DNA of 43,773 nt from a virus (lineage: Duplodnaviria; Heunggongvirae; Uroviricota; Caudoviricetes), in the IMG/VR virus record IMGVR_UViG_2718218402_000005. One strand, given 5' to 3'. How positions within the stretch are numbered: the stretch's first letter is position 1; each line of letters starts with the position of its first letter. A program made the position numbers and the translations under genes. Under the pieces are notes generated by a model. It was not told where the DNA came from, did not search any database, and saw only the letters and a program-made list of their open reading frames with translations. Positions 14,569 through 41,469 of the stretch are shown in pieces.

Positions 14569-14602
14569 TGATATCTCTCCCTGCCGTTCTCTGGGATGTG
14601 AT

Positions 14603-15742: not shown

Positions 15743-15782
15743 ATATCAATACGGTTCTGACGAGCCGCTTACAGAAAATCCC

Positions 15783-20290: not shown

Positions 20291-20296
20291 TGAGGA

Positions 20297-24485: not shown

Positions 24486-25980
24486 TCTTTCACACATTAT
24501 TGCCGCAGCATTCAATGAACCGCTGCTTCTGGAGCCCGCCTATGCGCGGGTTTTCTTTTGCGCGCTCGGGCGCGAGATGGGGGCAGCAAGTCTTTCGGTA
24601 CCACAGCAGCAGGTACAGCTTGATGCTCCCGGAATGCTGGCTGAAACGGACGAGTACATGGCCGGAGGTAAACGACCGGCCCGTGTTTACCGGGTGGTGA
24701 ACGGTATTGCTGTACTGCCGGTGACCGGCACGCTGGTGCACCGGCTGGGTGGTATGCGGCCATTTTCCGGAATGACAGGCTATGACGGCATTGTCGCCTG
24801 TCTTCAGCAGGCAATGGCGGATAGCCAGGTGCGGGGCGTACTGCTGGACATTGACAGTCCGGGCGGGCAGGCCGCCGGCGCGTTTGACTGCGCTGACATG
24901 ATTTACCGCCTCCGTCAGCAGAAGCCGGTCTGGGCACTGTGCAATGACACGGCCTGTTCTGCAGCCATGCTGCTGGCGTCGGCCTGCTCCCGACGGCTGG
25001 TTACCCAGACATCCCGTATCGGCTCCATTGGCGTGATGATGAGCCATGTCAGCTATGCCGGTCATCTGGCGCAGGCCGGTGTGGATATCACGCTGATTTA
25101 CTCAGGGGCGCACAAGGTGGATGGCAATCAGTTTGAAGCCTTACCGGCAGAGGTTCGCCAGGACATGCAGCAGCGCATTGATGCGGCGCGCCGGATGTTT
25201 GCCGAAAAAGTGGCCATGTTTACCGGTCTGTCTGTTGATGCCGTCACGGGAACAGAGGCCGCCGTTTTTGAAGGTCAGTCCGGCATTGAGGCCGGGCTGG
25301 CGGATGAATTAGTCAATGCGTCGGATGCCATCAGTGTGATGGCCACGGCGCTGAACAGTAATGTCAGAGGAGGCACTATGCCGCAATTAACTGCAACGGA
25401 AGCCGCCGCGCAGGAGAACCAGCGAGTGATGGGGATCCTGACATGCCAGGAAGCGAAAGGACGTGAACAGCTTGCCACGATGCTGGCAGGACAACAGGGC
25501 ATGAGCGTTGAACAGGCCCGGGCGATTCTGGCCGCGGCGGCACCGCAGCAGCCGGTGGCATCCACGCAGAGTGAAGCCGATCGCATTATGGCGTGTGAAG
25601 AAGCGAACGGTCGTGAACAACTGGCGGCAACGCTGGCGGCGATGCCGGAGATGACGGTGGAAAAAGCCCGCCCGATCCTGGCTGCTTCACCGCAGGCGGA
25701 TGCCGGACCCTCACTCCGTGATCAGATCATGGCACTGGATGAGGCAAAAGGGGCTGAGGCGCAGGCTGAACAGCTGGCTGCCTGCCCGGGAATGACTGTG
25801 GAGAGCGCCCGGGCTGTGCTGGCTGCGGGATCAGGTAAGGCAGAACCGGTCTCTGCATCCACAACCGCCCTGTTTGAACGCATCATGGCGAACCATTCAC
25901 CGGCTGCGGTACAGGGTGGCGTGCCACAGACGTCAGCAGACGGTGATGCGGACGTGAAAATGCTCATGGCCATGCCATGA
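24475..25980 (+). CDS. Head maturation protease/scaffold (gpC-like, S49 family) with expanded C-terminal repeats
   Basis: GTG start; N-terminal two-thirds match lambda C; C-terminus has three tandem copies of a roughly 40-aa motif. Confidence 0.85.
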   Translation: MRRNLSHIIAAAFNEPLLLEPAYARVFFCALGREMGAASLSVPQQQVQLDAPGMLAETDEYMAGGKRPARVYRVVNGIAVLPVTGTLVHRLGGMRPFSGMTGYDGIVACLQQAMADSQVRGVLLDIDSPGGQAAGAFDCADMIYRLRQQKPVWALCNDTACSAAMLLASACSRRLVTQTSRIGSIGVMMSHVSYAGHLAQAGVDITLIYSGAHKVDGNQFEALPAEVRQDMQQRIDAARRMFAEKVAMFTGLSVDAVTGTEAAVFEGQSGIEAGLADELVNASDAISVMATALNSNVRGGTMPQLTATEAAAQENQRVMGILTCQEAKGREQLATMLAGQQGMSVEQARAILAAAAPQQPVASTQSEADRIMACEEANGREQLAATLAAMPEMTVEKARPILAASPQADAGPSLRDQIMALDEAKGAEAQAEQLAACPGMTVESARAVLAAGSGKAEPVSASTTALFERIMANHSPAAVQGGVPQTSADGDADVKMLMAMP

Positions 25981-26016
25981 AGTCAGTGCTGACCATCAAC
26001 AGGAGGTTTTTACAAT

Positions 26017-26364
26017 ATGGTAACGAAAAACATCACTGAACAGCGTGCGGAAGTACGTATTTTTGCCGGTAATGATCCGGCTCATACCGCCACAGGCAGC
26101 AGCGGGATTTCCTCGGCAACACCGGCACTGACGCCCCTGATGCTGGATGAAGCCAGCGGGAAACTGGTGGTCTGGGACGGACAGAAAGCCGGTAGTGCAG
26201 TTGGCATACTGGTACTGCCGCTTGAAGGCACAGAGACGGTACTGACGTATTACAAGTCGGGGACCTTTGCGACGGAGGCAATCCGCTGGCCTGAAAGTGT
26301 GGATGAACACAAAAAGGCAAATGCCTTTGCCGGCAGTGCCCTGAGTCACGCGGCGCTGCCGTAA
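26017..26364 (+). CDS. Head decoration protein (gpD-like)
   Basis: DPAHTATG...TPLMLDEASGKLVVWDG...GILVLP...YYKSGTF matches lambda D. Confidence 0.85.
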   Translation: MVTKNITEQRAEVRIFAGNDPAHTATGSSGISSATPALTPLMLDEASGKLVVWDGQKAGSAVGILVLPLEGTETVLTYYKSGTFATEAIRWPESVDEHKKANAFAGSALSHAALP

Positions 26365-26421
26365 CACGTTATCAGGCCACCGCGGTGGCCTGACTGATTT
26401 CTGAATGAAAGGAACTGATTT

Positions 26422-27081
26422 ATGGGATTGTTTACGACCCGCCAGTTACTCGGTTATACCGAACAAAAAGTGAAATTTCGTGCGCTGTTTCTGGAGCTGT
26501 TTTTCCGCCGTACGGTGAATTTCCATACCGAAGAGGTGATGCTGGACAAAATTACCGGAAAAACGCCGGTGGCGGCCTATGTCTCCCCGGTTGTTGAAGG
26601 AAAAGTGCTGCGTCATCGCGGTGGTGAAACCCGCAATGAAATCACACAGACGGTCAGTAAAACGCTGGAAGACCAGAGCGCCACCATTCAGCAGATACAG
26701 CGCGTGCAGAAGGACACAAATGATGACCTGGCTGCGCTGTACATGCTGAAGGTTCAAAAAACGAAAGACGGCATTCCCTATGTGGCCGGGATTGGTGCAG
26801 GGATTGAGGATACTGATGGCCATCCACTGAGCAACATACTGCTGCTGGCTGACCGTATCGCGATGATAAATCCGGAGAGCGGCAACAGCACTCCGTTATT
26901 TGTGGCGCAGGGGAATCAGCTGTTCATGAACGACGTGTTCCTGAAGCGTCTGTTTGCGGCGAGTATCACGTCATCCGGCAACCCCCCGACGTTTTCCCTG
27001 ACGCCGGAAGGGAAGCTGACAGCCAGGAACGCGGATACCGTTATGAGTTCACGGATCACCTGGGCGGCATTGTCGCGCTGA
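26422..27081 (+). pseudogene. Major capsid gene E, 5' fragment fused to unrelated sequence
   Basis: First 70 codons match lambda E; remainder does not and runs into the lom fragment. Confidence 0.6.
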
Positions 27082-27473
27082 GTTATGCATCGGTGAAGAA
27101 AAGTGACACGATGAAGACGGGTGAAAATACCTTCCATTATGAAAGCCTGCGCGGTCGTTATGTCAGTCTGATGGCCGGCCCTGTCTGGCAGCTCAGTGAG
27201 CGGGTCAGTCTCTATGGCATGGCCGGGATGGCGTACACCCGCTGGTCTGACAGTGTTCAGGATTACCGGCGTGATGAAGTGAAACCGGGGTATGTGAAGG
27301 AGACCACCACCGCCAGTGATGGTCATACTGCGCGTCATCTGTCGCCGGCCTGGAATGCCGGGATTCAGTTCAGTCCCGTAGAGACGGTGGTTATTGACCT
27401 TGCTTATGAAGGTTCCGGCAGTGGCGACTGGCGCACTGACGGTTTCATCGTGGGTGTCGGCTATAAATTCTGA
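26990..27473 (+). pseudogene. lom (Ail/Lom outer membrane protein) 3' fragment
   Basis: [18 protein letters not shown] ... LAYEGSGSGDWRTDGFIVGVGYKF matches the C-terminal two-thirds of lambda Lom; no N-terminal signal peptide region; tail genes absent between E and lom. Confidence 0.65.
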
Positions 27474-27537: not shown

Positions 27538-28416
27538 ATGGCAGTAAAGATTTCAGGTGTACTGAAAGACGGCACAGGAAAACCGGTACAGAACTGCACA
27601 ATCCAGCTGAAAGCAAAACGTAACAGCACCACGGTGGTGGTGAACACGCTGGCCTCAGAAAATCCGGATGAAGCCGGGCGTTACAGCATGGACGTTGAGT
27701 ACGGTCAGTACAGCGTTATTCTGTTGGTGGAAGGGTTCCCGCCGTCACATGCCGGGACCATCACCGTGTATGAAGATTCTCAGCCGGGTACGCTGAATGA
27801 TTTTCTCGGTGCCATGACGGAGGAGGATGCCCGGCCGGAGGCACTGCGCCGTTTTGAACTGATGGTGGAAGAGGTGGCGCGTCACGCTGAGGAGGCGAAG
27901 AAGAATGCCGGAGAGGCGGAGACGTCAGCGAGGAATGCCGGCATATCAGCCAGTCAGGCAGAAGAGAGCGCTGCAAATGCTGACACTTCAGCAGGGGAGG
28001 CATCGGAGTCAGCCCGGCAGGCGGCAGAAAGTGCAGCCTCAGCAAAGCAGTCAGAGGATGCGTCCTCGTCCTCGGCTTCTGCGGCCGCTCAAAAAGCCAG
28101 TGAGTCATCACAAAGTGCAGCAGAAGCTGAATTGTCAAGAAAGACGGCAGAAAGTGCAGCCGGTAATGCAGCCAGGGATGCAACGACCGCAACAGAAAAA
28201 GCCCGGGAGTCAGCAGAAAGCGCACAGTCAGCGGAACAAAGCAGGATAGCGGCGGAAGAGGCCGTAAACCGAATCCCCACCGTGGTGGGACCTCCCGGGC
28301 CAAAGGGGGAAACCTGTGCCAGATCGCGTTTTTCAAACTTTTTAATTTCCGTTGCCGCTCTGCGGGCTTTTTTTACCAAAAATACCAAACATCGTGACGT
28401 TCCTTTGGGTGGGTGA
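27538..28416 (+). pseudogene. Side tail fibre gene stf, 5' fragment
   Basis: MAVKISGVLKDGTGKPVQNCTIQLKAKRNSTTVVVNT... matches the lambda Stf N-terminus; becomes non-protein-like after about codon 260. Confidence 0.7.
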
Positions 28417-28561
28417 GCCAACGCCCGGGAGCGATCTGCCCACAGAGAAAGTCACACTGACCACTCCATAAGCTCCCCCCGAAAGGCTCTGTGGTTGGTA
28501 TGCGCCGGGCGTGGTGCGGATACAAAAAAGGTCCGCAAAAGCGAGCGAGGGAAAATAAGTG

Positions 28562-28638
28562 TGGTGCGTTGTACTGGGTTCGAACCAGTGACCGATTGCT
28601 TAGAAGGCAATTGCTCTGTCCGGCTGAGCTAAAAACGC
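28562..28638 (-). tRNA. tRNA-Arg (anticodon UCU), second copy
   Basis: Reverse complement matches 11649-11725 with one acceptor-stem mismatch (T6 opposite C67). Confidence 0.6.
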
Positions 28639-28651
28639 AGAATACCGATAA

Positions 28652-28728
28652 TGGACCGCCATCGGAGACTCGAACCCCGCGAAACCAGCTTCGAAGGCTG
28701 GCGTTCTATCCCGATGAGCTAATGGCGG
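28652..28728 (-). tRNA. tRNA-Arg (anticodon UCG), second copy
   Basis: Fully paired acceptor stem CCGCCAT/ATGGCGG; anticodon loop CTTCGAA. Confidence 0.7.
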
Positions 28729-28735
28729 TATGTGA

Positions 28736-28811
28736 TGGTGGCCCTTGCTGGATTTGAACCAGCGGCCTGGCGATTATGAGTCGCTCGCTCTCACCACTGA
28801 GCTAAAGGGCC
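28736..28811 (-). tRNA. tRNA with anticodon CAU (Met/Ile2-type), second copy
   Basis: Reverse complement nearly identical to 11476-11551. Confidence 0.75.
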
Positions 28812-28930
28812 GGGCGCAGGATAATAACGTTACGAAATCAATGTTGCAAGCATTCAAGAATCACCTGGTTAAAAATTACCCTTGCTTCCTCCACCAGCGC
28901 ATTCACCATGTCTATCCGAGATAAGTGGCA

Positions 28931-28962
28931 CAAAAAAACCCGCTTGTGGGCGGGTTTTGTTT
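28931..28962 (-). terminator. Bidirectional intrinsic terminator downstream of the Unit 2 Q-position gene
   Basis: A-run, CCCGC-TTGTG-GGCGGG hairpin, T-run. Confidence 0.5.
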
Positions 28963-29021
28963 GCTTTTGCCATCACGTACAAAATCGGCAAAATATCAGA
29001 TTTGCATGAAATATATGCCTT

Positions 29022-29717
29022 TCAATCTACTTTTGCAACACTTTGCTTTGAAAATGCCGCCTTTTGTTTTGAACGCGTTCTCATTACAAACAATAAAGCC
29101 TCACTATCCAGTCGGTGAAAAATGTGTTTCATTGCAACCCAGTGACGAGTAAATGTTTTGGACCAGTTTTTAGTTGTCACTCCCACCAGTAATGCCAGCT
29201 CCTTGTATTCATAACCTTCCCCACCAAAAAGTTCTGCTTTTACTGCCTGCGCCGCCAGCCAGATTAATTTTTTCAGGCGTTCCTGCGTTTTCCCTGCAAT
29301 TTTTCTGGTACCGGATTGAGTATTAAATTCATTCCACGCCCACTGTGTTATCGCGATCTGATATTCCCAACAAATACTCCCGCTGTAACACCACAACAAC
29401 CAGGCTTTATGATGTTCTTCAAGAGACAGAACAGCCCGCCGCCACGATGATGTCGAAAACTCAATCGGACTGACCAGAGGAATTGACGTCCCCTTCGCCA
29501 GCGATTGCTTTCCCGGGATTGGTGGATTATCCCGCGTTATCATTTTTCCAGTCACTTCATCGCGGTACCGGATTTTTTTACGCCTGTAACGCCCTGTATC
29601 GAACATGGCATTCTCCTGCCAGGCTTCAAGCTGACCTTTTGTTGCCCCACTCAAATCAGCGGTGGCGATAATGAGCTGCTCACGCACAAACTGTAAATAC
29701 TGGTTATTCATGCGCAC
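29022..29717 (-). CDS. Putative late-gene antiterminator (Q-position protein, 231 aa)
   Basis: Downstream of rusA and upstream of terminator and tRNAs; unrelated in sequence to the Unit 1 Q-position protein. Confidence 0.4.
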   Translation of the reverse strand: MRMNNQYLQFVREQLIIATADLSGATKGQLEAWQENAMFDTGRYRRKKIRYRDEVTGKMITRDNPPIPGKQSLAKGTSIPLVSPIEFSTSSWRRAVLSLEEHHKAWLLWCYSGSICWEYQIAITQWAWNEFNTQSGTRKIAGKTQERLKKLIWLAAQAVKAELFGGEGYEYKELALLVGVTTKNWSKTFTRHWVAMKHIFHRLDSEALLFVMRTRSKQKAAFSKQSVAKVD

Positions 29718-30067
29718 CCCAGTTCTGTGATTTTTATCCCCAACCGCCCACCAGGAACAAGCTGACCGCGCACAATATTAATTTCATCAAACTGCTCGTC
29801 GTCTATGAGCAGCCCCGCATGCGTCAGTGCATCCAGTGGTGCCTTCAGGATATTGTCCAGGTCACGACGGCGCTTATCCGGTGGCTCTGCAATAATTTTT
29901 ATTGCCAGCCTTCCGGACAGGTTTAATTTCAGTTGCTGCTGGCGAACAATAAGCGCCACATCACGGCGATAACGCTCACCGACTTTTGATACAAAATATG
30001 TGCTGCCACGACGCCGCCAGTAGGTGTTCACCGTTGGCGGGTAAGGCAAAACAAACTCTATACGCAT
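29708..30067 (-). CDS. rusA: RusA-family Holliday junction resolvase
   Basis: Paralog of 8885-9244. Confidence 0.8.
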   Translation of the reverse strand: MRIEFVLPYPPTVNTYWRRRGSTYFVSKVGERYRRDVALIVRQQQLKLNLSGRLAIKIIAEPPDKRRRDLDNILKAPLDALTHAGLLIDDEQFDEINIVRGQLVPGGRLGIKITELGCA

Positions 30068-30079
30068 CAGTAACCTCTT

Positions 30080-31129
30080 TTACCCGAGCACGCCGGTTGC
30101 AAAGGCGTGATCAAGAAAACGAAAAATTAAATCAATCTGGGAACCATGCTTTTCTTCGAACGCCAGCGGATCCGCATGAAGCTCGTTGTGATGCTCCCGA
30201 CACAGCGGTAGCGTGAAAATATCGTGGGATTTTGTTCCCATCCCTCCCTGACCGTGACCAATCAGGTGATGGGGATCGTCGGCTGGCTGACCACAACACG
30301 CACACGGCTGTGTCTTCACCCAGCTCGTATATTTCTCATTTACCCAACGGCGACGTTTAGGTCGCCTCATGAAAGATTCCGGAGACTCCGGATCAACGGT
30401 AATGCTGACCACCGCCTTTTCCTGTGCTGGGTTCTGTGGCTGGTGGGTGTGAAGCAACGGCGCAAGATTTTTTGTGCGCTGCTTCAGTATGCTGGTGGCG
30501 GTCTGCTCTCCCGGTACGATGTCGCTTTCGCGGTACAAGGAGCGGATTTTTTCCGCACGCAACCCCAGTGAACGACGTAATACAGCTTCCGGTAGCGCGT
30601 CCGCCACCTGATTGCGGACCGCCCACCAGGATAATTCAGCCAGAGATAATTCCCGCTCCTGTGTGCCATTCATTGCATGGCGTATGACGTCAATCATCCA
30701 TGCTGACAGGTTTTGATGAGCAAGTTGCCCGAGTGATTCAGAGGTCTGGTCACGCAGCTGGTTGTCGCAGTGCCAGCACAACACCATCGCGCCGGTACCG
30801 TAACGATGTATGACGGTTTCACTGTGATGATAGTCACCATGAGGCCACTGGCAGGATTTGACATGACGCAACAGCCAGTCAGACAGTGCACCAGCGCCGC
30901 CAGCAGCACGAATCACCCGCTCATCGCTGAAAAATGGCAGTAATGATTTATCCTCCGCCAGCGGCTGGCGAACGGCAGGAACGACTCCGGACGGCAGACC
31001 GCGCATGCTTTTTGGTTCCGGCTCCACCAGCACTCGAGGGTTATGAAATACCTGCATGGATTCACGGCCCGGCTTAAGGACCACCAGCCCAAGTTCCGGT
31101 ACCGGAACAGGTCGAAGTAATACCCGCAC
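30080..31129 (-). CDS. ydfU: DUF968-type prophage protein with C-terminal HNH-like motifs (YdfU-like, 349 aa)
   Basis: 349 aa, same length class as Qin YdfU; paralog of 7822-8872. Confidence 0.6.
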   Translation of the reverse strand: MRVLLRPVPVPELGLVVLKPGRESMQVFHNPRVLVEPEPKSMRGLPSGVVPAVRQPLAEDKSLLPFFSDERVIRAAGGAGALSDWLLRHVKSCQWPHGDYHHSETVIHRYGTGAMVLCWHCDNQLRDQTSESLGQLAHQNLSAWMIDVIRHAMNGTQERELSLAELSWWAVRNQVADALPEAVLRRSLGLRAEKIRSLYRESDIVPGEQTATSILKQRTKNLAPLLHTHQPQNPAQEKAVVSITVDPESPESFMRRPKRRRWVNEKYTSWVKTQPCACCGQPADDPHHLIGHGQGGMGTKSHDIFTLPLCREHHNELHADPLAFEEKHGSQIDLIFRFLDHAFATGVLG

Positions 31130-31130
31130 G

Positions 31131-31409
31131 TTACCTCCAGATGCGTTGCTGGAATGTGCGGGACGGACGCGGTGGGCGTTCGGAATAAGGGAGCCTGACG
31201 TAGATTATCCAGTGACGATAATCGAGGCTGAGGGCTTTCCTAAACTCATACCCACGCCTGCGGTAGTTCTGAATCAGCCATTCGGCCTGTTCTTCAGTGC
31301 ATGGGTCATGCTGGTACCAGTCATATTTGAATGCATGAGAACGCCGCCCGTGCCTGCTGGCAAAGACGGCTGAATTATCAGAATTGTGTGGTCTGGAATT
31401 TTGCGCCAT
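31131..31409 (-). CDS. Hypothetical small protein (92 aa)
   Basis: Paralog of 7549-7821. Confidence 0.35.
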   Translation of the reverse strand: MAQNSRPHNSDNSAVFASRHGRRSHAFKYDWYQHDPCTEEQAEWLIQNYRRRGYEFRKALSLDYRHWIIYVRLPYSERPPRPSRTFQQRIWR

Positions 31410-31475
31410 CGGTTTTCTCCGGTGGCACAGTGTTACTCAACAGGGGTTCAGCCCTGTGCTGAATTGTAGATGAAT

Positions 31476-31739
31476 TTACTCATCTTCAAAAGCAGAAAAA
31501 CCAGCCTTAAGCCCAGCTTCTTTCAGAGACTGCAATGATGTGACAAATTCATTTTCACGCAAAATAAAACCATCTGTCACAAGTTCATCCACAAAATAAA
31601 TTAACGCAGCTCCACTCTTCCTTTGTTTAGATTGTAAACATTTAATACGGCAGTGACTGACAATAGCACCATTCTCAACGCGCACAGTATAGAGGCCATC
31701 TTCAGTAAAAATTTCACGTAATTCTTCGATTTTCATCAA
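31476..31739 (-). CDS. Hypothetical small protein between ydfU-like and hok (rem-position, 87 aa)
   Basis: Position matches rem of Qin; no counterpart in Unit 1. Confidence 0.35.
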   Translation of the reverse strand: MMKIEELREIFTEDGLYTVRVENGAIVSHCRIKCLQSKQRKSGAALIYFVDELVTDGFILRENEFVTSLQSLKEAGLKAGFSAFEDE

Positions 31740-31861
31740 CAGAATCCTTCCAGATAAATAGCACTCCCCTGTTCGGGGTCCATCCCTCTTATCCCTGCGC
31801 GCTACTTAAGTATTTTTGATTCTATTCCGGCACCGCCCAGAACTTCAAACGCGTTGAAAAT

Positions 31862-31888
31862 AAAAACAAAAACCCGCCGAAGCGGGTT
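31862..31888 (-). terminator. Intrinsic terminator after hok (second copy)
   Basis: Reverse complement of the 7451-7477 hairpin. Confidence 0.5.
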
Positions 31889-31956
31889 AAATGCGGGTGC
31901 GTTGAGAATGCCTGACACATCAGAGGTGGCGAGGGATTTCTCCCCCGCCGGGTCTC

Positions 31957-32112
31957 TTACTCCTCAGATTCGTAAGCTGTGAAGACAGCGACCTCCGTCT
32001 GGCCGGTTCGGATTCGTACCTCGCAGAGGTCTTTCCTCGTTACCAGTGCCGTCACTATGACGGTTAAACAGATGACGATCAGGGCGATTAACATCGCCTT
32101 TTGCTGCTTCAT
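31957..32112 (-). CDS. hok: Hok/Gef-family type I toxin (51 aa)
   Basis: MKQQKAMLIALIVICLTVIVTALVTRKDLCEVRIRTGQTEVAVFTAYESEE; upstream leader homology to about 32300. Confidence 0.85.
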   Translation of the reverse strand: MKQQKAMLIALIVICLTVIVTALVTRKDLCEVRIRTGQTEVAVFTAYESEE

Positions 32113-32854
32113 AGCCTGCTTCTCCTTGCCTTTCGGCACGTAAGAGGCTAACCTACGTGTGTAGAGCATAGATATGGCCTCAGATTAATGTTAAGCGTCT
32201 TGCCGGACGCGTAATGTTAACTGGGGCTTTTCTCTATCTGCCTTTGGTGTTGATGCCCGAGGCAGATAGCCTCAAGCACCCGCAGCAATTCTACTTAACT
32301 ACCGTTACCTCGCCAATATGAAATCAATCAGAAAGGTGATCCATAAGAACAACAGCAAGACAATAAATTGCCATTACAGCAGCAATAGCCAGCGCACATT
32401 TGAGAACCAGCACCACAACCTCCTGTATTGGACGTACACCAGTCCTGATAAATATGAGGCTGTCTCGTCAGTGATTCAATACAACTACTGGGTATAGTTT
32501 CTATGATTTTGTTCTGTGGAAATGGAAAACAGCAACCAGTCACCACCAGCACTTCTTTAAACATGCCAAGTCACACGCAAGCCAACATTATAGTTCCCTT
32601 TGAGCGAGCAGATGAAGCTAGCAAAAATATTGATCACTTAGGATGCATTACTAACGTTGCTATGTGTTAACGAACAGGGAGTGGGTCATCAGCATAAATA
32701 TTTATGCAGTAGGTTTCTTTTAGGACTAGATTAATCAAAAACATTTAGATAAAATTATAAAATCAAGAAATTGGTGGCAATTAATCTTTAATTGTGCCAG
32801 CTGAATTTCGTTATTATAGAAGATTAGCTTTTTTTTGAGTGTTTGGAGAGTAAA

Positions 32855-33550
32855 ATGTTAGAACCACCAAAGAGTTATAATGAAATGTTGCCTATGCTCC
32901 ATAAGGCGACTTTTATTACTACATTTATATTTTACCTATCATTAGTCATTTATGGCTACATGCCATTGGTTGGCATTAATGCCAAGTATATCCCCCCCGT
33001 TAAAGACTACGAGGAATTTATTAAATGGATATTAACCTTTGGCATATTACCAATTGCATCTTCAGTTTTTTGGTCAGTAATTAGTGGAGCTTTAGATCTA
33101 CATAATAATGTAGCAAAAATTATTGGAATAAGGAAGATGTGGGATAGTCATTTAATTATTAAACCATTAGCAAAAATTGCAGGCGTTACGAGAAAATTAA
33201 CTACTGATGAATCTCACAAGGTAATGAGTAAACTGTATTACCCAGAAGTTAAAGAGTTAAAAGACAAACATTACGTTGAACTTTTCTGGAACAAAGTTTA
33301 TTACTTTTGGGTTTTCTTTGAACATACAGTAATCGCATTTGTTACTATTTTAATAATAAGTATCGCCAAATTAACAAATATATTCTCTGTTACTGGCTCT
33401 TTAATTAATCTTTGGTTGTGGATTATTTCTCTTGTCGCATTTGACTTCCTTATTTTCATAGCATCAGTTAAACCAAGAACAGAAAGCCAAGTAAGACAAA
33501 TACCTGATAGCAAAATAAAAGAATTCTTTAACAATAACAATATTTTTTAA
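32855..33550 (+). CDS. Predicted 4-TM membrane protein of AT-rich cargo island (231 aa)
   Basis: ATG 32855 after GGAG; four hydrophobic helices; AT-rich. Confidence 0.5.
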   Translation: MLEPPKSYNEMLPMLHKATFITTFIFYLSLVIYGYMPLVGINAKYIPPVKDYEEFIKWILTFGILPIASSVFWSVISGALDLHNNVAKIIGIRKMWDSHLIIKPLAKIAGVTRKLTTDESHKVMSKLYYPEVKELKDKHYVELFWNKVYYFWVFFEHTVIAFVTILIISIAKLTNIFSVTGSLINLWLWIISLVAFDFLIFIASVKPRTESQVRQIPDSKIKEFFNNNNIF

Positions 33551-33556
33551 ACGAGG

Positions 33557-34216
33557 TTGATTTTGAATTACAAAATAAATGGAATAAACATACGTTCAGA
33601 AAATGCAGCGAAACCGCACACTATGCCATCTAACTATCTCTGTAAACAGATTGAAAGCACTAATAAAAATGGCAATGCCCTTGATTTTGGATGTGGAAAA
33701 CTTAGATATTCAGAACAATTAGTAAATAAATTTGAAACTGTGACATTTTTAGATTCCAGAAGACAACTAGAAAGAGTGCAAATTATCAGAGGTGTACAAA
33801 CCACGATTCCAGATTACGTGATAAATAACTATAAGAATGCTAATATTGTTTCTTATGAAAATATAGATAAAATAACAAATCATTATGATTTCATACTTTG
33901 CGCAAACGTGCTTTCCGCAATTCCATGTGAATCCACAATTCACAAAGTCCTCAGTGCGATTAGAGAATTATTAAAGAGTGATGGTGAAGCACTGATTGTC
34001 AATCAATACAAAAGTTCTTATTTCAAGAGGTACGAGAGCGGTATTAAACATTTGCATGGGTATATATACCAAAACTCTCGCAATGCTTTCTACTATGGTT
34101 TATTAGATGTGGATACTGTAAGTAAAATATGCTCAGATAATAATTTAGAAATAATAAGATCATGGAGCAAAGCAGGTAGTTCATATGTGGTTGTTGGTAA
34201 ACATATACATATTTAG
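33557..34216 (+). CDS. Class I SAM-dependent methyltransferase-fold protein (about 218 aa)
   Basis: Glycine-rich motif LDFGCGKLRY followed by FLDS; TTG start (33557 or 33563) 7-13 nt after the upstream stop. Confidence 0.45.
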   Translation: MILNYKINGINIRSENAAKPHTMPSNYLCKQIESTNKNGNALDFGCGKLRYSEQLVNKFETVTFLDSRRQLERVQIIRGVQTTIPDYVINNYKNANIVSYENIDKITNHYDFILCANVLSAIPCESTIHKVLSAIRELLKSDGEALIVNQYKSSYFKRYESGIKHLHGYIYQNSRNAFYYGLLDVDTVSKICSDNNLEIIRSWSKAGSSYVVVGKHIHI

Positions 34217-34530
34217 TTTATTTCAACAAATTATTAGAAAGAGTGATTTGCTTGTTAATTATTAGCTCGGCAGTGCCGGATCAACATGACCCTGCCACTT
34301 AGGCCATTGCCGGTTTACCTACTTTTGTAAGGTTCAGCATGAAGTTTTTATATACTCTTCCTAATATCAATAGTGATGCTCGCTTATGTTAGCTGCTTCT
34401 TGTACATAGTAGCCTTCTCCGACAGTACTGCAATGAGCGGAGAGTAAAAGTCGATAAACAATAAGGAGGTTCACAATAAATATTTCTCGGTGAAACTTTC
34501 AAAGCATTCTCTGTTTTGCTAAATCGACAA

Positions 34531-35430
34531 TTATAAATCAACAACATTTAGTGTTATATCAATATTATTTAGCCTTGCAATCTCTGATGAATCACTTGCT
34601 ATTTTAGCTTTTAATTTATCAATATTAATCATATCTTCATGGCTTATATAAACCATATCACCTTGGTTAACTTTAGATTTGTTCACTATGGCTTGAATAA
34701 CAGACAAATCATCCATTACACCTCTCATAAATTTCACCATGCTTTGATCTTTGAAGTCAGATATCGATTTTGAACGTTGCTTACGTTGAATTGTTCCTTT
34801 TGTAATTACTTCATTAATTTCTTTTAAACCAGTGAGCATATCAGACAGACTGCCTTCGCAACTCATCCGATGTTTTATTGCATTGCGATTAATAATATTG
34901 AGTATAATTTCGAGTGAATCTTTATCACTCCATGGATGTAATGATGTATAATCATGATGGCGTCGAATGGCGTCAATCATATCCTGGACCATATCTTCAT
35001 CTGCTTTATCGCAAAGTTCATTCACGAAATAGCTGGGGTCGATTATTTTACAATAACTTGGAGTTAGGTATCTTGAGGCTTTACAAAAACCAAAAATATA
35101 TAAAGTAGAGTATTTATCTTTCAGACTCTCTCCTATTTCATTTATTTTCTCAAAAGATTCGATAGTTTTTTTAATTTTTGCTGGACTTGCATTCGTAGTA
35201 ACTTGAACTGCTATCATGTTTTTATTATCAGCTAAATCAATGGCGGGAAAATTAACTTTAATCTGATTCATGTTTACCAGTTCACCCATTTTCAGCGCGC
35301 GAAACATAAAGATGGTCAATGACTCAATTATTCTTTCCATGTCATGAAAGCCTGCCTGTTTGCGTTGCGCGATATAAAGCTGGAGTAGTGCAATATCACT
35401 CTGTAAGTTTCTAATAAGTGGATCAATCAT
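34531..35430 (-). CDS. Hypothetical 299-aa protein with conserved-looking N-terminal motif and a C-terminal R-x4-H motif
   Basis: FPAIDLADNKNMIAVQVTTNASPAKIKKTI block resembles SMEK-type N-terminal domains from memory; RNAIKH fits a HEPN-like R-x4-H pattern; AT-rich; convergent with the preceding two genes. Confidence 0.45.
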   Translation of the reverse strand: MIDPLIRNLQSDIALLQLYIAQRKQAGFHDMERIIESLTIFMFRALKMGELVNMNQIKVNFPAIDLADNKNMIAVQVTTNASPAKIKKTIESFEKINEIGESLKDKYSTLYIFGFCKASRYLTPSYCKIIDPSYFVNELCDKADEDMVQDMIDAIRRHHDYTSLHPWSDKDSLEIILNIINRNAIKHRMSCEGSLSDMLTGLKEINEVITKGTIQRKQRSKSISDFKDQSMVKFMRGVMDDLSVIQAIVNKSKVNQGDMVYISHEDMINIDKLKAKIASDSSEIARLNNIDITLNVVDL

Positions 35431-35682
35431 AGCTAATAATCCTTTTCAATGAAGCTGGAGGTGTGTTTAACTATTAGTTAAATTTCTATTTTTATAGAAA
35501 CAAGCTTTACAACTTCATCAAAGTTTCTCAAATCCTAATCCACTTTGCAAATCCACTAACCATGCTGAATGCTTTCTGTTGTTAAACATATCCGCTGCTG
35601 GCACCAAGCAGACAAACACACTAACTCTACCCTACTCCACAAAAGAGCCAATCAATATCTGAACTAATAAACTTTAATCTCA

Positions 35683-36105
35683 TCACTTCAATAAATATCG
35701 AGCATTTCCCTGATAGAATGCTAGTATGCGCTGCATAACTTCACTCTTCCGGCACTCGCGACAGATTATGTTCTGACGCCTGTCGTAGCGACGTATTTCT
35801 CCGTCAGGTAATGACCAGATAAGGTCCGGATCAACCGCAGATGGTTCCTTCAGCTTTGCCCTTGAGAGCTTTTTACGGGCATTTTGCCAGTCCTTACGCG
35901 CCTGTTCAGACGGGAATAACCCGTAACCAGAGTTGTATACATCGCCGCTGGCAACCAGCTCTCTTGCGAGAACGCTCATCAGATATCTTGTCGCACCTGT
36001 CTTGACTTCCAGTTGCCGTAACGTCTCACGCCCACTCCGGCGTACGAGTTCAACAACCTGCCCTTTAATTTTTTCCCGCTCTTCTTGTGTAAAAACTTTT
36101 GCCAC
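35683..36105 (-). CDS. Hypothetical protein co-inherited with rep (second copy, 140 aa)
   Basis: Paralog of 5015-5437. Confidence 0.4.
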   Translation of the reverse strand: MAKVFTQEEREKIKGQVVELVRRSGRETLRQLEVKTGATRYLMSVLARELVASGDVYNSGYGLFPSEQARKDWQNARKKLSRAKLKEPSAVDPDLIWSLPDGEIRRYDRRQNIICRECRKSEVMQRILAFYQGNARYLLK

Positions 36106-36145
36106 AAGCCCTCCTGAAAATTACCTCATGACCAGAAATTAACAC

Positions 36146-37135
36146 TTACCCCCTGAAGCCCGGCGGAATTTCGGTATCCGGCTCAGAAATATGATTCACA
36201 CAACGCTGTACAGACGAACGCCCCAGGCGGATAACCAGTTCATCCCATTTTTCGCGAAGCTTTGACGGACTCATGATATTTTTTACCCAGAATGGATCCC
36301 GCTGCACCCGACCAAACATTTCACAAATTTGTCTGTGAGTTCTGCCATCCAGCATCCGCATTGTGCGCACGTCGTTGGCCCATGCGGTCCAGTTGGGTTC
36401 TTTCGGTCGCGAAATCTCGCCATCATCGCTGGCGGCCTGCTCGTAAAGACTCACGATTCGCCCCCAGATCCACTGCGCACACGCCAAATCTTCCTGGCTG
36501 CCCCACTGGCGTTTTTTCGCACTGAACACAACCGCGTCAGGGTGTCGGGTTAAAAAATCCTGTTCAACCGTCTGCGGGTCCGGTTGCGAAGCTTCCGGAC
36601 GAGAAGTCTTTTTATTCTCTGTAGTAATCTCTGTTGTATTCTCTGTAGTAATCTCTGTTGTATTCTCTGTAAGATCATCAGGCCATTTTGACCCGATGAC
36701 ATTGAGTCGTTTTGAACCAATGGAGCGTTTCATTTTGACCTCTTCCATCGTGTCATTTTGACCTGATGGAGCGGCGCATTTTAAACCGATGGATTCGCTC
36801 AATTTGCCACCATCTAAAAGCTCGCTCCCGTAGTTGATCGTGTAGAAATTGGTCATATCGCGCTTTGATTTATTGAGCTTTTCACAACGCAAAAGCCCCA
36901 GCGTTTTCAGACTTGCAAACGCGCGCTTTAACGTTGACTCTGACCAGAATGGGAACTGTTCCAGCCATTGTTCCGTTGTGTTATAAATCCAGCGAACACC
37001 ATCACATTCCATGCCGGAGTTGGTATCTCTCAACCAGTAGTGCAGTTGTTGCAAAACAATGGCTTCGTTTAAGCCAATTTTCATTGCCAGCTGCGTGTTT
37101 ATAACCAGTGGGCGTTCAGCAAAAAGAAGACTCAT
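36146..37135 (-). CDS. Phage replication initiation protein (Unit 2) with internal iterons
   Basis: ORF 36146-37189; likely start at Met 37135 (MSLLFAERPLVINTQLAMKIGLNEA...); internal tandem repeats encode TENTTEITTENTTEITTEN; C-terminal 20 aa identical to the Unit 1 rep protein. Confidence 0.55.
   Translation of the reverse strand: MSLLFAERPLVINTQLAMKIGLNEAIVLQQLHYWLRDTNSGMECDGVRWIYNTTEQWLEQFPFWSESTLKRAFASLKTLGLLRCEKLNKSKRDMTNFYTINYGSELLDGGKLSESIGLKCAAPSGQNDTMEEVKMKRSIGSKRLNVIGSKWPDDLTENTTEITTENTTEITTENKKTSRPEASQPDPQTVEQDFLTRHPDAVVFSAKKRQWGSQEDLACAQWIWGRIVSLYEQAASDDGEISRPKEPNWTAWANDVRTMRMLDGRTHRQICEMFGRVQRDPFWVKNIMSPSKLREKWDELVIRLGRSSVQRCVNHISEPDTEIPPGFRG
36615..36795 (-). repeat. Putative origin iterons inside the rep gene
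   Basis: 24-bp unit TTCTCTGTAGTAATCTCTGTTGTA repeated twice plus a partial copy (36615-36673), then five spaced copies of CATTTTGACC-like elements (36684-36787). Confidence 0.55.
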
Positions 37136-37637
37136 AATTCCATCCAGCTTTTTGTTGGTATTGCTGTCGATACGCAAGCTTGAAAGCAATTGCTTTTTCT
37201 ATAAGTTCGTCAGTTTCACGATCTACAACGGCAGGATCTGCAAAAAGCAGTCCGGATTCCACCACATCGCCATATTCTTTATTTAACCCGGCGATCATGT
37301 ACGTAATACTTTTTCCATCACTGATCTCACGATACAACCTGAAATCACTAATCCGGATAGCCTCCATAATCGCAGGCACTAGCGCCGTGAACTTTTCACG
37401 CTTATCCCTGGTGTCGATAGCCTTCCAGCGTTCGAATATCTTCACTCGATTAACGCCAAGCGCTCGCTGATCAACCGCGCCACCTTCATCTGTGACACGC
37501 TGAACATCGATGTTCGGGCGCTCTTTCAAAGCCCAGAATGCTTCAGTGATTAATATCGTCGCCTGCTCCTGTGTCATTCCTGGTCGACATATCCAGGCAT
37601 CCAGAGCCTCACGAGCCTGTTCAGGAGTGATTTTCAT
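37116..37637 (-). CDS. YdaT/YdfX-position protein (173 aa)
   Basis: Follows dicC on the same strand; weak similarity to 2154-2579. Confidence 0.4.
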   Translation of the reverse strand: MKITPEQAREALDAWICRPGMTQEQATILITEAFWALKERPNIDVQRVTDEGGAVDQRALGVNRVKIFERWKAIDTRDKREKFTALVPAIMEAIRISDFRLYREISDGKSITYMIAGLNKEYGDVVESGLLFADPAVVDRETDELIEKAIAFKLAYRQQYQQKAGWNYESSFC

Positions 37638-37851
37638 TGTTCAACCGCCCCGCCCGCTTCGTCTTACGATATTCATCATAAACTTTGGGATCATACTGAA
37701 GCTCCCCGCCAGATGCCTCCTGTAGACGCATCGCGCGACCTTCGGGAACTAAATCCCCTTTCCAGCTATAAAGCGAAGCCAAACGAATACCTGCTGCTTG
37801 TGCAAGTTTTGTTTTTGAACCGAAATACAAAAGAGCGTCAGTTTTAAGCAT
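37621..37851 (-). CDS. dicC: DicC (Cro-like regulator, 76 aa)
   Basis: 76-aa ORF divergent from dicA; sequence consistent with DicC from memory. Confidence 0.6.
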   Translation of the reverse strand: MLKTDALLYFGSKTKLAQAAGIRLASLYSWKGDLVPEGRAMRLQEASGGELQYDPKVYDEYRKTKRAGRLNNENHS

Positions 37852-37864
37852 TTAAAACACCTTT

Positions 37865-37884
37865 ATTGTTAGTCATGACTAACA
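37865..37884. promoter_or_regulatory. 20-bp perfect palindrome TTGTTAGTCATGACTAACAA in the dicC-dicA intergenic region (putative DicA operator)
   Basis: Perfect inverted repeat; related TTAGC...GCTAA half-sites at 37916-37931. Confidence 0.55.
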
Positions 37885-37934
37885 AAATAGATGTTAACAA
37901 AAACATAGTCAATACGATTTAGCATTAGCTAACT

Positions 37935-38342
37935 ATGGAAACAAAAAATTTAACTATCGGCGAACGCATTAGGTATCGTCGGAAAAACCTCAAACACACC
38001 CAAAGGTCTCTTGCTAAAGCCCTGAAAATCTCCCATGTGTCTGTATCACAATGGGAACGGGATGATAGTGAACCTACAGGGAAGAACCTTTTTGCCCTCA
38101 GCAAAGTATTGCAATGCTCACCAACATGGATTCTATTTGGCGATGAAGACAAGCAACCAACACCACCTGTTGAGAAGCCAGTTGCCTTATCCCCCAAAGA
38201 ACTAGAGCTCCTTGAGCTGTTTAATGCACTGCCAGAATCAGAACAGGATACCCAGCTCGCCGAAATGCGAGCTCGAGTAAAAAACTTCAATAAACTCTTT
38301 GAAGAATTACTAAAAGCCCGTCAGCGGACAAATAAAAGATAA
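37935..38342 (+). CDS. dicA: DicA (CI-like HTH repressor, 135 aa)
   Basis: METKNLTIGERIRYRRKNLKHTQRSLAKALKISHVSVSQWERDDSEPTGKNLFALSKVL... matches DicA from memory. Confidence 0.7.
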   Translation: METKNLTIGERIRYRRKNLKHTQRSLAKALKISHVSVSQWERDDSEPTGKNLFALSKVLQCSPTWILFGDEDKQPTPPVEKPVALSPKELELLELFNALPESEQDTQLAEMRARVKNFNKLFEELLKARQRTNKR

Positions 38343-38412
38343 CATCATCAATGAGTTATCTTTTACCACATCAATCATGTTAGCAATAACATACAAAATC
38401 ACTTGACCTATA

Positions 38413-38428
38413 TGTTAGCCATGGCTAA
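38413..38428. promoter_or_regulatory. Palindrome TGTTAGCCATGGCTAA between dicA and ydfA
   Basis: 14-bp perfect palindrome TTAGCCATGGCTAA at 38415-38428 at the same relative position as the Unit 1 palindromes. Confidence 0.45.
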
Positions 38429-38508
38429 TCTTATTTGCATCAACACACCGCACGGTGTTCTCAGCAAACAGTTCCGCTACCCCGGCGTTAAGGGGAAATG
38501 AGGTCAAC

Positions 38509-38664
38509 ATGGATACTATCGATCTTGGCAACAGCGAATCTCTGGTATGTGGCGTGTTCCCCAACCAGGACGGTACGTTCACCGCGATGACGTATACCAA
38601 AAGCAAAACGTTTAAAACCGAATCTGGAGCGCGTCGCTGGCTGGAAAGAAATTCAGGTGGGTGA
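38509..38664 (+). CDS. ydfA: YdfA (DUF1391-type, 51 aa)
   Basis: MDTIDLGNSESLVCGVFPNQDGTFTAMTYTKSKTFKTESGARRWLERNSGG; GAGG 7 nt upstream. Confidence 0.55.
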   Translation: MDTIDLGNSESLVCGVFPNQDGTFTAMTYTKSKTFKTESGARRWLERNSGG

Positions 38665-38665
38665 T

Positions 38666-38794
38666 ATGGATTTCGACACAATCATGGAAAAGGCTTACGA
38701 AGAATACTTCGAAGGTCTTGCCGAAGGCGAAGAAGCTCTCAGCTTCAGCGAATTTAAACAGGCACTTTCCAGTTCGGCAAAATCTAACGGCTGA
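38666..38794 (+). CDS. ydfB: YdfB (42 aa)
   Basis: MDFDTIMEKAYEEYFEGLAEGEEALSFSEFKQALSSSAKSNG; not in the ORF track because shorter than 60 aa. Confidence 0.55.
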   Translation: MDFDTIMEKAYEEYFEGLAEGEEALSFSEFKQALSSSAKSNG

Positions 38795-38823
38795 TAAGCG
38801 AAACAGCACCGCGAGGAATCAGT

Positions 38824-39042
38824 ATGCAGAAACGAGAACCCGTCATCATCGCGCCAGACTATACCGATGATGAACTTTATGAGTGGATGCGCCAGAAAAT
38901 TAATGCAGCGCAGGATCTGAAATGGGCCAATGAAGCCAGGGCTAAGCAGGCTGAAAATCTGTCCGCTCTGGAGCAGGATATCACTAATCTGGAAAAAGCA
39001 GCGACATTAAGCATTGCCAGAATGATTACATACCCGCGTTAA
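38824..39042 (+). CDS. ydfC: YdfC (72 aa)
   Basis: Follows dicA-ydfA-ydfB on the same strand; paralog of 568-786. Confidence 0.55.
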   Translation: MQKREPVIIAPDYTDDELYEWMRQKINAAQDLKWANEARAKQAENLSALEQDITNLEKAATLSIARMITYPR

Positions 39043-39071
39043 TAGCTAACCAACGAAGCTAAGGTTGGTAA

Positions 39072-39890
39072 TTAAGGAGTTCTCCACGGAGGGCGCATTA
39101 CAGAAATGGTGGTCTGTTCTACCGTTCTTCAAGAGACGGTTATGGTTTTGAGGAAGACTGGGCAGAAGTTTATACCTCGAAAAATCTTCCACCAGAAAGC
39201 TACCCAGTCGGCGCACCAATCCCGTGGCCATCAGATACCGTTCCGTCTGGCTATGCCCTGATGCAGGGGCAGGCTTTTGACAAATCTGCATACCCGAAAC
39301 TTGCAGCGGCTTATCCGTCAGGCGTGATCCCTGATATGCGTGGCTGGACGATTAAGGGCAAACCTGCCAGTGGTCGGGCCGTATTGTCTCAGGAACAGGA
39401 CAGCATTAAATCGCATACCCACAGCGCCAGCGCATCCAGTACGGATTTGGGGACGAAAACCACATCGTCGTTTGATTACGGCACTAAATCCACGAATAAC
39501 ACTGGTGCGCATACCCATAGTTTAAGTGGCAGCACGAATGCAGCTGGTAATCACAGCCATAGAGATGGCCGTCGATTTAACCCCAGTGTTTTTAAAGATA
39601 CTTATCAATATGGTTATACAAGCTCAGGTCAAAATACCTGGGGTGTACAAGGCTCAGTAGGTATGTCTACGGGGTGGTTAGCGAATACCAGTACAGATGG
39701 TAATCATAGCCATTCACTGTCCGGCACAGCAGCATCTGCAGGTGCACACGCGCATACTGTCGGTATTGGTGCTCATACGCACTCCGTTGCGATTGGTTCA
39801 CATGGACACACCATCACCGTTAACGCTGCTGGTAACGCGGAAAACACCGTCAAAAACATCGCATTTAACTATATTGTGAGGCTTGCATAA
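39072..39890 (+). pseudogene. Side tail fibre gene stf, 3' fragment
   Basis: Frame open from 39072; PIPWPSD...[47 protein letters not shown]...[11 protein letters not shown] matches the lambda Stf C-terminus; no N-terminal part adjacent. Confidence 0.7.
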
Positions 39891-40465
39891 TGGCATTCAG
39901 AATGAGTGAACAACCACGGACCATAAAAATTTATAATCTGCTGGCCGGAACTAATGAATTTATTGGTGAAGGTGACGCATATATTCCGCCTCATACAGGT
40001 CTGCCAGCAAACAGTACCGATATTGCACCACCAGATATTCCTGCTGGCTTCGTGGCTGTTTTCAACAGTGATGAGGCATCGTGGCATCTCGTTGAAGATC
40101 ATCGGGGAAAAACCGTCTATGACGTGGCTTCCGGCGACGCGTTATTTATTTCTGAACTCGGTCCGTTACCGGAAAATGTTACCTGGTTATCGCCGGGAGG
40201 GGAATATCAGAAGTGGAACGGCACAGCCTGGGTGAAGGATACGGAAGCAGAAAAACTGTTCCGGATCCGGGAGGCGGAAGAAACAAAAAACAGCCTGATG
40301 CAGGTAGCCAGCGAGCATATTGCGCCGCTTCAGGATGCTGCAGATCTGGAAATTGCAACGGAGGAAGAAATCTCGTTGCTGGAAGCATGGAAAAAGTATC
40401 GGGTATTGCTGAACCGTGTTGATACGTCAACTGCACAGGATATTGAATGGCCAGCACTGCCGTAG
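39890..40465 (+). CDS. tfaQ: Tail fibre assembly protein (Tfa)
   Basis: ATG overlaps the stf stop (TAATG); [49 protein letters not shown]... typical Tfa. Confidence 0.8.
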
Positions 40466-40562
40466 GGTAAAACATATAAATTCTATAATTAGATGTATCT
40501 TTCCATTTACGGCAAGGAAGGGGGCTTGGAAGACGTAAAGCATCTCACACCGAGATTATTTT

Positions 40563-41153
40563 TTATATGTCAGGTGTCTGAAGTTTTGCTTTGGCTCTTA
40601 AAATGGTTTGCCGCGAGGTTTTGAATTCCCGGGCAATGGCACTTATACTTACACCTGACTTAATTCGTTCGAATACCGCCTGTTTCTGTTCTTCATTTAA
40701 CACAGGTGGTCGACCAAAACGTTTCCCTGCGCCGCGGGCTCTTACTATCCCGGAATGAGTGCGTTCAAGTAAAAGGTCTCGTTCAAATTCAGCGACTGCT
40801 GAAATTACTTGCATCATCATTTTTCCTGTTGGACTGGTCAGGTCAATGCCCCCCAATGCTAAGCAATGCACTCTGATACCTGTTTCGGTCAGTTGTTCCA
40901 CTGTTTTCCTGATATCCATTGCATTACAACCAAGGCGATCCAGTTTTGTCACAATCAATTGATCACCACATTTTAGGCGAGCAAGCAACCGGTTAAAACC
41001 AGGACGCTCACTGGTTGCTGCTGAGCCGCTAATGTGTTCTTCGATTATTTGCTGAGGTTTGATTTTAAAACCTGCACTTTCGATTTCCCGGCGTTGATTT
41101 TCGGTGGTCTGATCCAGCGTTGATATCCGACAGTAAGCAAAAATTTGAGACAT
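40563..41153 (-). CDS. pinQ: Pin/Gin/Hin-family serine DNA invertase
   Basis: N-terminal catalytic motif [14 protein letters not shown] and C-terminal HTH; 196 aa. Confidence 0.85.
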
Positions 41154-41469
41154 AGTGAGACTCTATACGAAATTGGTGTTCATATCATAATGCATCTCAG
41201 AAAATAATTATGATTATTTTTGTGCATATTTGTATGTACACGTTCGAAAATAAACGAATGCGTATGCAACCCCGTAATTTTGGTGAGACCCAAAATCGAT
41301 TTTGTGAAAAATGGCTTTAACTCGGTTTGTTTTTCGAGTTCCGGGCGGACTCAAGGAAGAAGAATAGTGTTGCGTGTTATTTTAACCAGATTTCAAGTTG
41401 TTTGGTCGTGGAAAAGTGGAGCAAAATGTTGTTAAAGTGGAAAAATGATAAAAAAGTAAGTTTATTATA

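Follow-up and report, generated by a model that had tools for sequence, protein, structure and literature searches.

The Escherichia coli DNA held as IMG/VR virus record IMGVR_UViG_2718218402_000005, a stretch of 43,773 nucleotides (nt) hereafter called the window, ends on its right in the right flank of the Qin prophage site. Two fragments of the tail-fibre gene family stf lie on its + strand, separated by an inverted prophage early region of 10,779 bp (Unit 2), while the window begins with the early region of a left-hand prophage (Unit 1). From comparison with close relatives, we read the two fragments as the leftover ends of two different stf genes from two different dead prophages. It seems fairly probable to us that the locus is a composite scar, put together from three lambdoid prophages by non-homologous joins. 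A preliminary description had placed the two fragments on the + strand around the inverted region with boundaries near 28315 and 39072; this arrangement stands, and the boundaries can be refined to 28311 and 39091.

Two stf remnants and the sequences that join them

The 5' fragment is made up of the first 774 nt of a 1,314-nt (437-aa) stf gene of the type known from enteropathogenic and enterohaemorrhagic E. coli (EPEC/EHEC), and it belongs to the left-hand prophage, which we call P_W. It has one mismatch with the stf gene of strain 382634_2f (L002) and three with those of L017 and L005. Scaffold L017 shares both older deletion scars found upstream of the fragment in the window, and it has an intact stf of 437 aa with fiber_C and NleB downstream; the 5' fragment thus belongs with the 3' half of the 1,314-nt gene and not with the sequence that starts at 39091. 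The 3' fragment, by comparison, corresponds to the last 800 nt of a 3,399-nt StfQ-type gene and is a Qin remnant; the full-length gene is intact in strains 1190 and 90-9280 (L003, L015). It is because the uninterrupted partner of each fragment in close relatives is a different gene that we assign them to two genes, although the preliminary description had treated them as a single stf that was split. The fragments are also out of frame with each other (258 codons and 266.67 codons). The search of closed genomes that had been proposed for finding the uninterrupted arrangement returned no contiguous form: a synthetic query made of the 5' and 3' fragments had no place covering at least 80% of it in 5,426 complete genomes.

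The joins were placed by megablast end points together with three-way comparison with the uninterrupted partners. At the left join (J_left), stf nt 774 is connected to the inside of a TerB pseudogene (TerB'), with ...CCAAAGGGGGAA followed by ACCTGTGCCAGATCG; the same join can also be read as CCAAAGGGGGAA followed by ACCTGTGCCAG, or as ...GGGGGAA followed by ACCTGTGCC. Uninterrupted stf reads on from nt 775 as CAGGGGCCCGCGG..., and the distal part of TerB in the uninterrupted donor prophage of Unit 2, here called P_B, is ...GGCGTTAATCACC. This join is blunt (0 nt of microhomology), and the open frame of the 5' fragment extends across it to 28416 by way of 34 junk codons from antisense TerB'. 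At the right join (J_right), ...GAGTTCTCCACGGA is followed by GGGCGCATTACAG (also read as ...CTCCACGGA followed by GGGCGCATT), which connects a point 48 nt after the ydfC stop codon to stf with a microhomology of at most 2 nt. Uninterrupted P_B reads on past this break as ...CACGGATGAGGTGGAG, the dicB side being TGAGGTGGAGTGCG. Neither join has a target-site duplication, and at neither does the crossover fall within shared sequence, so that homologous recombination is, on the evidence of the join sequences, excluded. The view that both joins are illegitimate is therefore upheld. The related statement that neither junction lies inside a homology block shared with Unit 1 does not hold for the right junction: the repeat designated I2 ends at 39089, whereas in the intact donor its homology with Unit 1 (window 1-1139, 97.5%) extends 520 nt more. 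The right break thus cuts a block of homology between Unit 1 and P_B, yet the partner to which it is joined is stf.

The position of the right join can be related to an insertion sequence (IS). Window positions 39090-43773 are 99.98% identical to strain 19KM2326N (CP151038), in which stfQ is truncated by an IS3-family element of 1,258 bp, here called IS_x, with ends 5'-TG...CA-3' and inverted repeats that begin TGTAGTGG. IS_x ends with ...CCACTACA (...TTGACCACTACA) and is directly followed by GGGCGCATTACAG; the window has ...CACGGA, within ...CTCCACGGA, followed by the same GGGCGCATTACAG. The stf side of J_right therefore starts at the exact nucleotide after the right end of IS_x in 19KM2326N. 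This coincidence with an IS terminal nucleotide is confined to J_right, and no IS link was found for the left join. Among the 5,426 complete genomes the junction of IS_x with stf occurs in one, that of 19KM2326N, which also resembles the window most closely in Unit 2 as well as in the Qin flank; the transposase of IS_x is annotated as intact there, and the junction query has four places in that genome. When the 209-aa open reading frame (ORF) called in the 3' fragment was looked up, 19KM2326N and 13 further draft or metagenome contigs were obtained, and an IS3-family element precedes the stf remnant in all eight contigs whose sequence was returned (L006-L013). The G at 39091 is common to the window and all contigs bearing IS_x, and three intact alleles have A. 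Because of the exact match to the IS_x end, the lineage-specific G and a junction that is limited to 19KM2326N among complete genomes, we consider that the point at which stfQ is truncated probably goes back to an ancestor carrying IS_x, and that the right join probably arose at the end of this element, which was lost in the process. A documented route for such a loss is the excision of IS3-family elements, which depends on the transposase and on the IS-excision enhancer (IEE), a factor found in more than 30% of E. coli assemblies; neighbouring DNA is deleted too, over lengths from a few nt to more than 40 kb, and the ends are joined on little microhomology or none (PMC9943667).

Donor prophages and gene content of the window

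Unit 2 matches the serU prophage of ECO2947 in one ungapped alignment of 10,779 bp (99.99%), that of 19KM2326N at 99.96-100% apart from an IS inserted in the latter, and that of IAL7252 at 99.73%. Past the limits of Unit 2, these donors continue in one direction into TerB, DUF3927, an esterase, holin, lysozyme and the late genes, and in the other into dicB, ydfD, an exonuclease, the integrase and serU. Unit 2 is thus collinear with, and nearly identical to, the early region of an intact lambdoid prophage with normal flanks. Since the match is a single piece that continues normally on both sides in other strains, Unit 2 is best described as an internal fragment of the distinct prophage P_B, running from 77 nt inside TerB' to 48 nt past ydfC, and as no duplicate of Unit 1. 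The preliminary description had offered a partial inverted duplicate of a related prophage as one possible origin. The homology with Unit 1 is real and inverted, but it is patchy, being limited to six blocks of 74-1,640 nt with 86-97% identity that add up to about 3.55 kb, or 33% of Unit 2. The gene content, order and strand given for the block were confirmed, as were its nature as the early region of a related lambdoid prophage and that of the locus as a dead prophage.

Several features of Unit 2 may be recorded here. DicF, which lies downstream of ydfC in Unit 1, is absent from Unit 2 (39043-39090 side) because Unit 2 is cut 48 nt after ydfC. The hokD/sok pair is kept in both units, with sok at 7056-7231 and 32107-32281. 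The cargo island, which separates hokD from the replication genes, encodes a hypothetical protein without a Pfam hit, a class I S-adenosylmethionine (SAM) methyltransferase and a SMEK-domain protein, and may represent defence-type or moron cargo. In 19KM2326N an IS3-family element sits just upstream of this island.

Unit 1 and the head genes of the window are 99.0-99.8% identical to the serU-yodB prophage type present in 2013C-4465 and MFDS1001074. Lysis, terminase, portal, protease and decoration genes follow Unit 1, up to an ORF that fuses part of the capsid gene to part of J (capsid'-J'). By its single-nucleotide polymorphism (SNP) pattern, the head region at 19760-26634 is a mosaic of P_A and P_B and can be assigned to neither. 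The stf 5' fragment, together with the truncated lom (lom') and J', is 99.7-99.9% identical to tails of the P_B/L002 type.

The preliminary description had considered the tail module nonfunctional as a result of the interruption of stf. The tail genes were, in fact, lost in two separate older deletions. Deletion D1, which spans 12.5 kb between the major capsid gene and the 3' part of J, has a 9-nt microhomology at 26626-26634 (L005 position 21359 joined to 8831), and D2 removed 768 bp from J to lom, with an overlap at 27035-27037. The exact 219-aa and 126-aa products of these scars are present in the drafts GCA_003358185.1 and GCA_007648515.1 and in metagenome scaffolds, the 219-aa capsid'-J' product being found in two of the latter, and both scars occur in L016, L017 and L019. 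The tail module was lost earlier than the stf joins were made, and independently of them. In L016 and L017 there is a further deletion equivalent to window 24635-26185 (S49 protease gene).

Two IS copies lie within the left-hand prophage, and the site of each is empty in 2013C-4465. The IS911 copy is complete and sits 18 nt upstream of the Unit 1 replication gene; its presence shows that IS elements were not stripped from this sequence. The ISCro1 copy, which matches ISCro1 in two pieces, sits between the DUF1378/DUF826 genes and the holin region. Draft contig L016 begins 68 nt within the ISCro1 right end, and thus a relative carries ISCro1 at the same site. No complete genome sharing the ISCro1 insertion site, D1 or D2 was found when these were sought for the ancestral chromosome context.

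The coordinates of the features are summarized in Table 1. Two small RNAs (sRNAs) from Rfam can be added: IS009 within the 3' part of tfaQ (40233-40431, + strand) and STnc100 directly after the Unit 1 tRNAs (11802-11991, + strand). The tRNAs with a CAT anticodon, at 11476-11551 and 28736-28811, are called 'Met' by ARAGORN, and RefSeq has identical genes as tRNA-Ile (lysidine type).

Table 1. Features of the 43,773-nt window with their positions and strands
Feature	Position	Strand	Remarks
Unit 1, early region of left-hand prophage P_W	1-11766	+	99.7-99.8% to serU-yodB prophage of 2013C-4465; order DicF, ydfCBA, dicA/dicC-like, ydaT, rep, DUF977, hokD/sok, DUF968, rusA, DUF1133, methylase, 3 tRNAs
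DicF sRNA	175-226	-	Downstream of Unit 1 ydfC
IS911 copy, 1,250 bp	2636-3885	-	Ends TGAAGTGG...CCACTTCA; target duplication GTA; domains HTH_Tnp_1, rve
ISCro1 (IS66-family) copy	13838-15772	+	Internal deletion of about 0.77 kb; DDE_Tnp_IS66 E=6e-104
capsid'-J' fusion ORF	26422-27081	+	219-aa product; made by deletion D1
5'-truncated lom (lom')	27093-27473	+	126-aa Lom'; left by deletion D2
stf 5' fragment	27538-28311	+	774 nt, 258 complete codons; PF08400 phage_tail_N E=3.9e-69
J_left	28311-28312		Three-way comparison and blast end points
Unit 2, internal piece of serU-type prophage P_B	28312-39090	-	10,779 bp
Unit 2 tRNA-Arg/Arg/Ile(CAT)	28562-28811
Unit 2 Q	29022-29711
Unit 2 rusA	29708-30067
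Unit 2 DUF968	30080-31129
Unit 2 hokD	31957-32112
Unit 2 cargo island	32855-35430
Unit 2 DUF977, rep-like, ydaT, dicC	35683-37851
Unit 2 dicA	37935-38342	+
Unit 2 ydfA/B/C	38509-39042	+
J_right	39090-39091		P_B to stf 3' join
stf 3' fragment	39091-39890	+	800 nt; Collar and Phage_fiber domains
Qin right end and chromosomal flank	39890-43773	+	Annotation of collinear L003, L015, L023
tfaQ	39890-40465		Qin right end
pinQ	40563-41153	-	Resolvase domain
ydfJ' (truncated)	42490-43773		Preceded by ydfK and ynfT, which follow pinQ

Possible routes to the present arrangement

In the history that we favour, the left piece comes from P_W, a serU/yodB-type remnant that contributed Unit 1, the lysis and head genes, the old tail deletions and its own stf up to nt 774. 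The middle piece is an internal stretch of P_B, a second serU-type prophage, and the right piece is the right end of Qin at ydfJ, whose stfQ would by then have been shortened by IS_x to the final 800 nt. For the right join, a break, most likely cut by the transposase, would have fallen precisely where IS_x ends on the right; IS_x would have been lost, perhaps by IEE-type excision with adjacent deletion, leaving the stfQ flank exposed for ligation to P_B DNA. On the left, P_W stf nt 774 is bluntly joined to TerB' of P_B. The sources of the pieces, the joins and their lack of homology, the match to the IS end and the greater age of the tail deletions are shown by the sequences; we infer the order of events, the role of the transposase or IEE, and a larger rearrangement by which serU-type DNA and Qin DNA came to be neighbours.

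In every complete genome examined, prophages of the Unit 1 type and of the P_B type lie at serU-yodB, and Qin lies about 0.4 Mb away in the same orientation. In strain CD45 (L024, NZ_CP182220.1 2103000-2135000), P_B (with stf, fiber_C, nleB and espK) leads directly into the integrase and early region of a similarly oriented, Unit-1-like prophage, and this natural tandem pair is a plausible precursor configuration. Three paths can be proposed, and the 44-kb window is compatible on paper with all of them. In one, about 0.4 Mb of chromosome, from a point in P_B just beyond ydfC to the end of IS_x in Qin, would be inverted, and an inversion or deletion between TerB' and P_W stf would follow. In another, convergent prophages would be fused by two deletions and then flipped between their inverted early regions. 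In the last, a fragment of replicating P_B DNA would be captured at the break left by IS_x. For this last path the specific proposal, that a break due to excision or cleavage of IS_x was repaired with a 10.8-kb filler of replicating P_B DNA through two microhomology-free joins, is distinctly doubtful; if true, it would be a natural case of DNA capture coupled to IS excision in a bacterial chromosome.

Several observations weigh against the composite scar. Neither join was found in a junction-spanning megablast against complete E. coli genomes, the exact 40-mers of the joins occur in no other sequence of the GTDB representative genomes, JGI metagenomes and IMG/VR, and the fused ORF of 292 or 294 aa (its two possible starts) is absent from the exact-product and gene-position index; with the joins unmatched elsewhere, the structure rests on this single sequence. 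The relative positions of serU-yodB and Qin imply at least two further rearrangements that are invisible from the window. The window has no copy or fragment of IS_x at the junction or anywhere else. No intermediate in which IS_x abuts P_B (at TerB' or ydfC+48) or stf nt 774 was found in IMG/VR, but the positive control, IS_x next to the stf 3' piece, is also absent there, so that this search is uninformative. The break sites in P_B are not recurrent break or IS sites in other genomes: the TerB site is spanned by 701 of 701 matching records and the ydfC+48 site by 3,020 of 3,053, and the end of the weakest partial match listed for the latter lies elsewhere. A hairpin found at the P_B break (CTCCAC-GGATGAG-GTGGAG) is unexceptional, with z = -0.9. 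Finally, stf variants have a natural boundary between modules no more than 3 nt from where the stf 3' piece starts (window 39088-39092). The variants of Z1323PEC0011 (L028, about position 3000) and strain 1190 (L003, about position 6000) diverge wholly upstream of ...TGAAGGCGCATTACAG and are near-identical downstream of it, and the IS_x insertion, the window join and the module boundary all fall within 3 nt of one another.

An error of assembly or scaffolding would account for the uniqueness of both joins and would dispense with large unseen rearrangements: P_W, P_B and the IS_x-truncated Qin would be separate, with Unit 2 misplaced between contigs that end in stf. Three of the four junction sides do lie at repeat edges. 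On the stf 3' side this edge is the end of an IS. At J_right, the P_B side consists of a SNP base after which P_B and Unit 1 are identical for 214 nt. At the left join, stf nt 774 differs from the stf of the 19KM2326N type, with identical sequence after it. The TerB' side, however, is at no visible repeat edge, and the joins lack the repeat remnant, a k-mer overhang of IS_x or of the 214-nt repeat, that a de Bruijn-graph join should leave. Draft contigs L007-L013, in contrast, carry 100-140 nt of IS_x. Long-read misassemblies occur within repeats and not at the first unique base, and the cleanly assembled copies of IS911 (1,250 bp) and ISCro1 suggest an assembly that resolved repeats; on balance such an error is unlikely. 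The preliminary description already offered the idea that two convergent prophages were fused by deletions; in the form considered here, there would be two simple deletions and perhaps a later flip between the inverted early regions. This idea comes closer to our result than the duplicate does, in that different prophages are involved. If the inverted blocks recombined, the window would switch to an isomeric form and back; in that isomer P_W is reversed, with the early genes of P_B running towards it, and each join takes the appearance of a deletion. D1 and D2 show that the lineage accumulates deletions. But the serU-yodB prophages share one orientation, whether single or in tandem as in CD45, which disfavours this path and would call for a prior inversion, and deletions alone from serU to Qin would remove about 0.4 Mb of chromosome; we regard it as quite improbable.

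A single resident hybrid stf, EPEC-type in its 5' part and StfQ-type in its 3' part, might instead have been interrupted by an inverted prophage fragment, part of the stf sequence being lost. In favour of this, the stf pieces on either side share a strand and follow each other in the expected order, both joins are illegitimate, stf genes are often mosaic, and the 3' boundary coincides with one between modules. This reading is nevertheless very unlikely, given that a complete 437-aa stf, with fiber_C and nleB behind it, is present in the nearest relatives of the left flank, that upstream of the same boundary the nearest relative of the right flank carries Z'-IS_x, and that the frames disagree, no contiguous version exists in the 5,426 genomes and a target-site duplication is lacking. 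The PinQ invertase might also be invoked, through recombination of an stf crossover site with a pseudo-site in another prophage. The gix/cix-type sites of Mu and P1 sit at the boundary between constant and variable tail-fibre modules, the 3' boundary in the window is of this kind, and pinQ is 0.7 kb downstream. However, a core of the AAACCNNGGTTT type is absent near either join (its two matches in the window, both elsewhere, are at chance level), there is no inverted-repeat partner between tfaQ and pinQ, and the boundary (the ...GATGAAGGCGCATT site) is explained by the IS end, which leaves a Pin-mediated event with next to no credibility. The pair of 26-bp inverted crossover sites with an AAACC-NN-GGTTT core that a switch of the Din family (Pin/Gin/Hin) would require does not flank the segment.

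Relation to known rearrangements

Qin (Kim) of E. coli K-12 has the same site and the same right-end genes (tfaQ, pinQ, ydfK, ynfT and truncated ydfJ) as the window, its stfQ is likewise reduced to a 3' remnant, and its early genes are of the dicA/dicC/ydfABC type. It differs in that the upstream partner of the remnant in the window is the ydfC end of a reversed serU-type prophage, and in that the truncation in the window lies at an IS3-family end, a feature shared among complete genomes with 19KM2326N only. Kusumoto et al. (2011), according to the summary in PMC9943667, reportedly described excision of IS3-family elements that depends on IEE and transposase and is accompanied by adjacent deletions. 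As in that process, an IS3-family element is missing here, one side of the join is the nucleotide after the IS end, and the other side is arbitrary, with no more than 2 nt of microhomology. Unlike in that process, no excision restoring the target-site duplication is seen, the left join has no IS link, and the partner DNA comes from another prophage in an inversion-type orientation and not from sequence adjacent to the IS.

Resident lambdoid prophages of EHEC and EPEC are rearranged among themselves, an example being the large inversions in O157 that arise by recombination between homologous prophage regions. The window resembles these cases in that several near-identical lambdoid prophages of one chromosome have been rearranged, but in those events the crossovers fall inside homologous blocks, whereas the joins described here lie outside usable homology. 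A classic split gene likewise has two same-strand fragments of one gene family on either side of foreign DNA; here, by contrast, there are two genes, no target duplication, and an insert without mobility functions or defined ends. The structure is an already known type of prophage decay. No tail-fibre function is expected from it, and with the tail module destroyed beforehand it has no evident effect on how the cell functions.

The significance of the locus lies first in a correction: same-strand fragments of a gene family around foreign DNA need not be a split gene. It also provides an example of how defective lambdoid prophages in pathogenic-type E. coli may be stitched together by non-homologous joins, one of them probably at the end of a lost IS, which is of relevance to prophage annotation and to IS-based strain typing.

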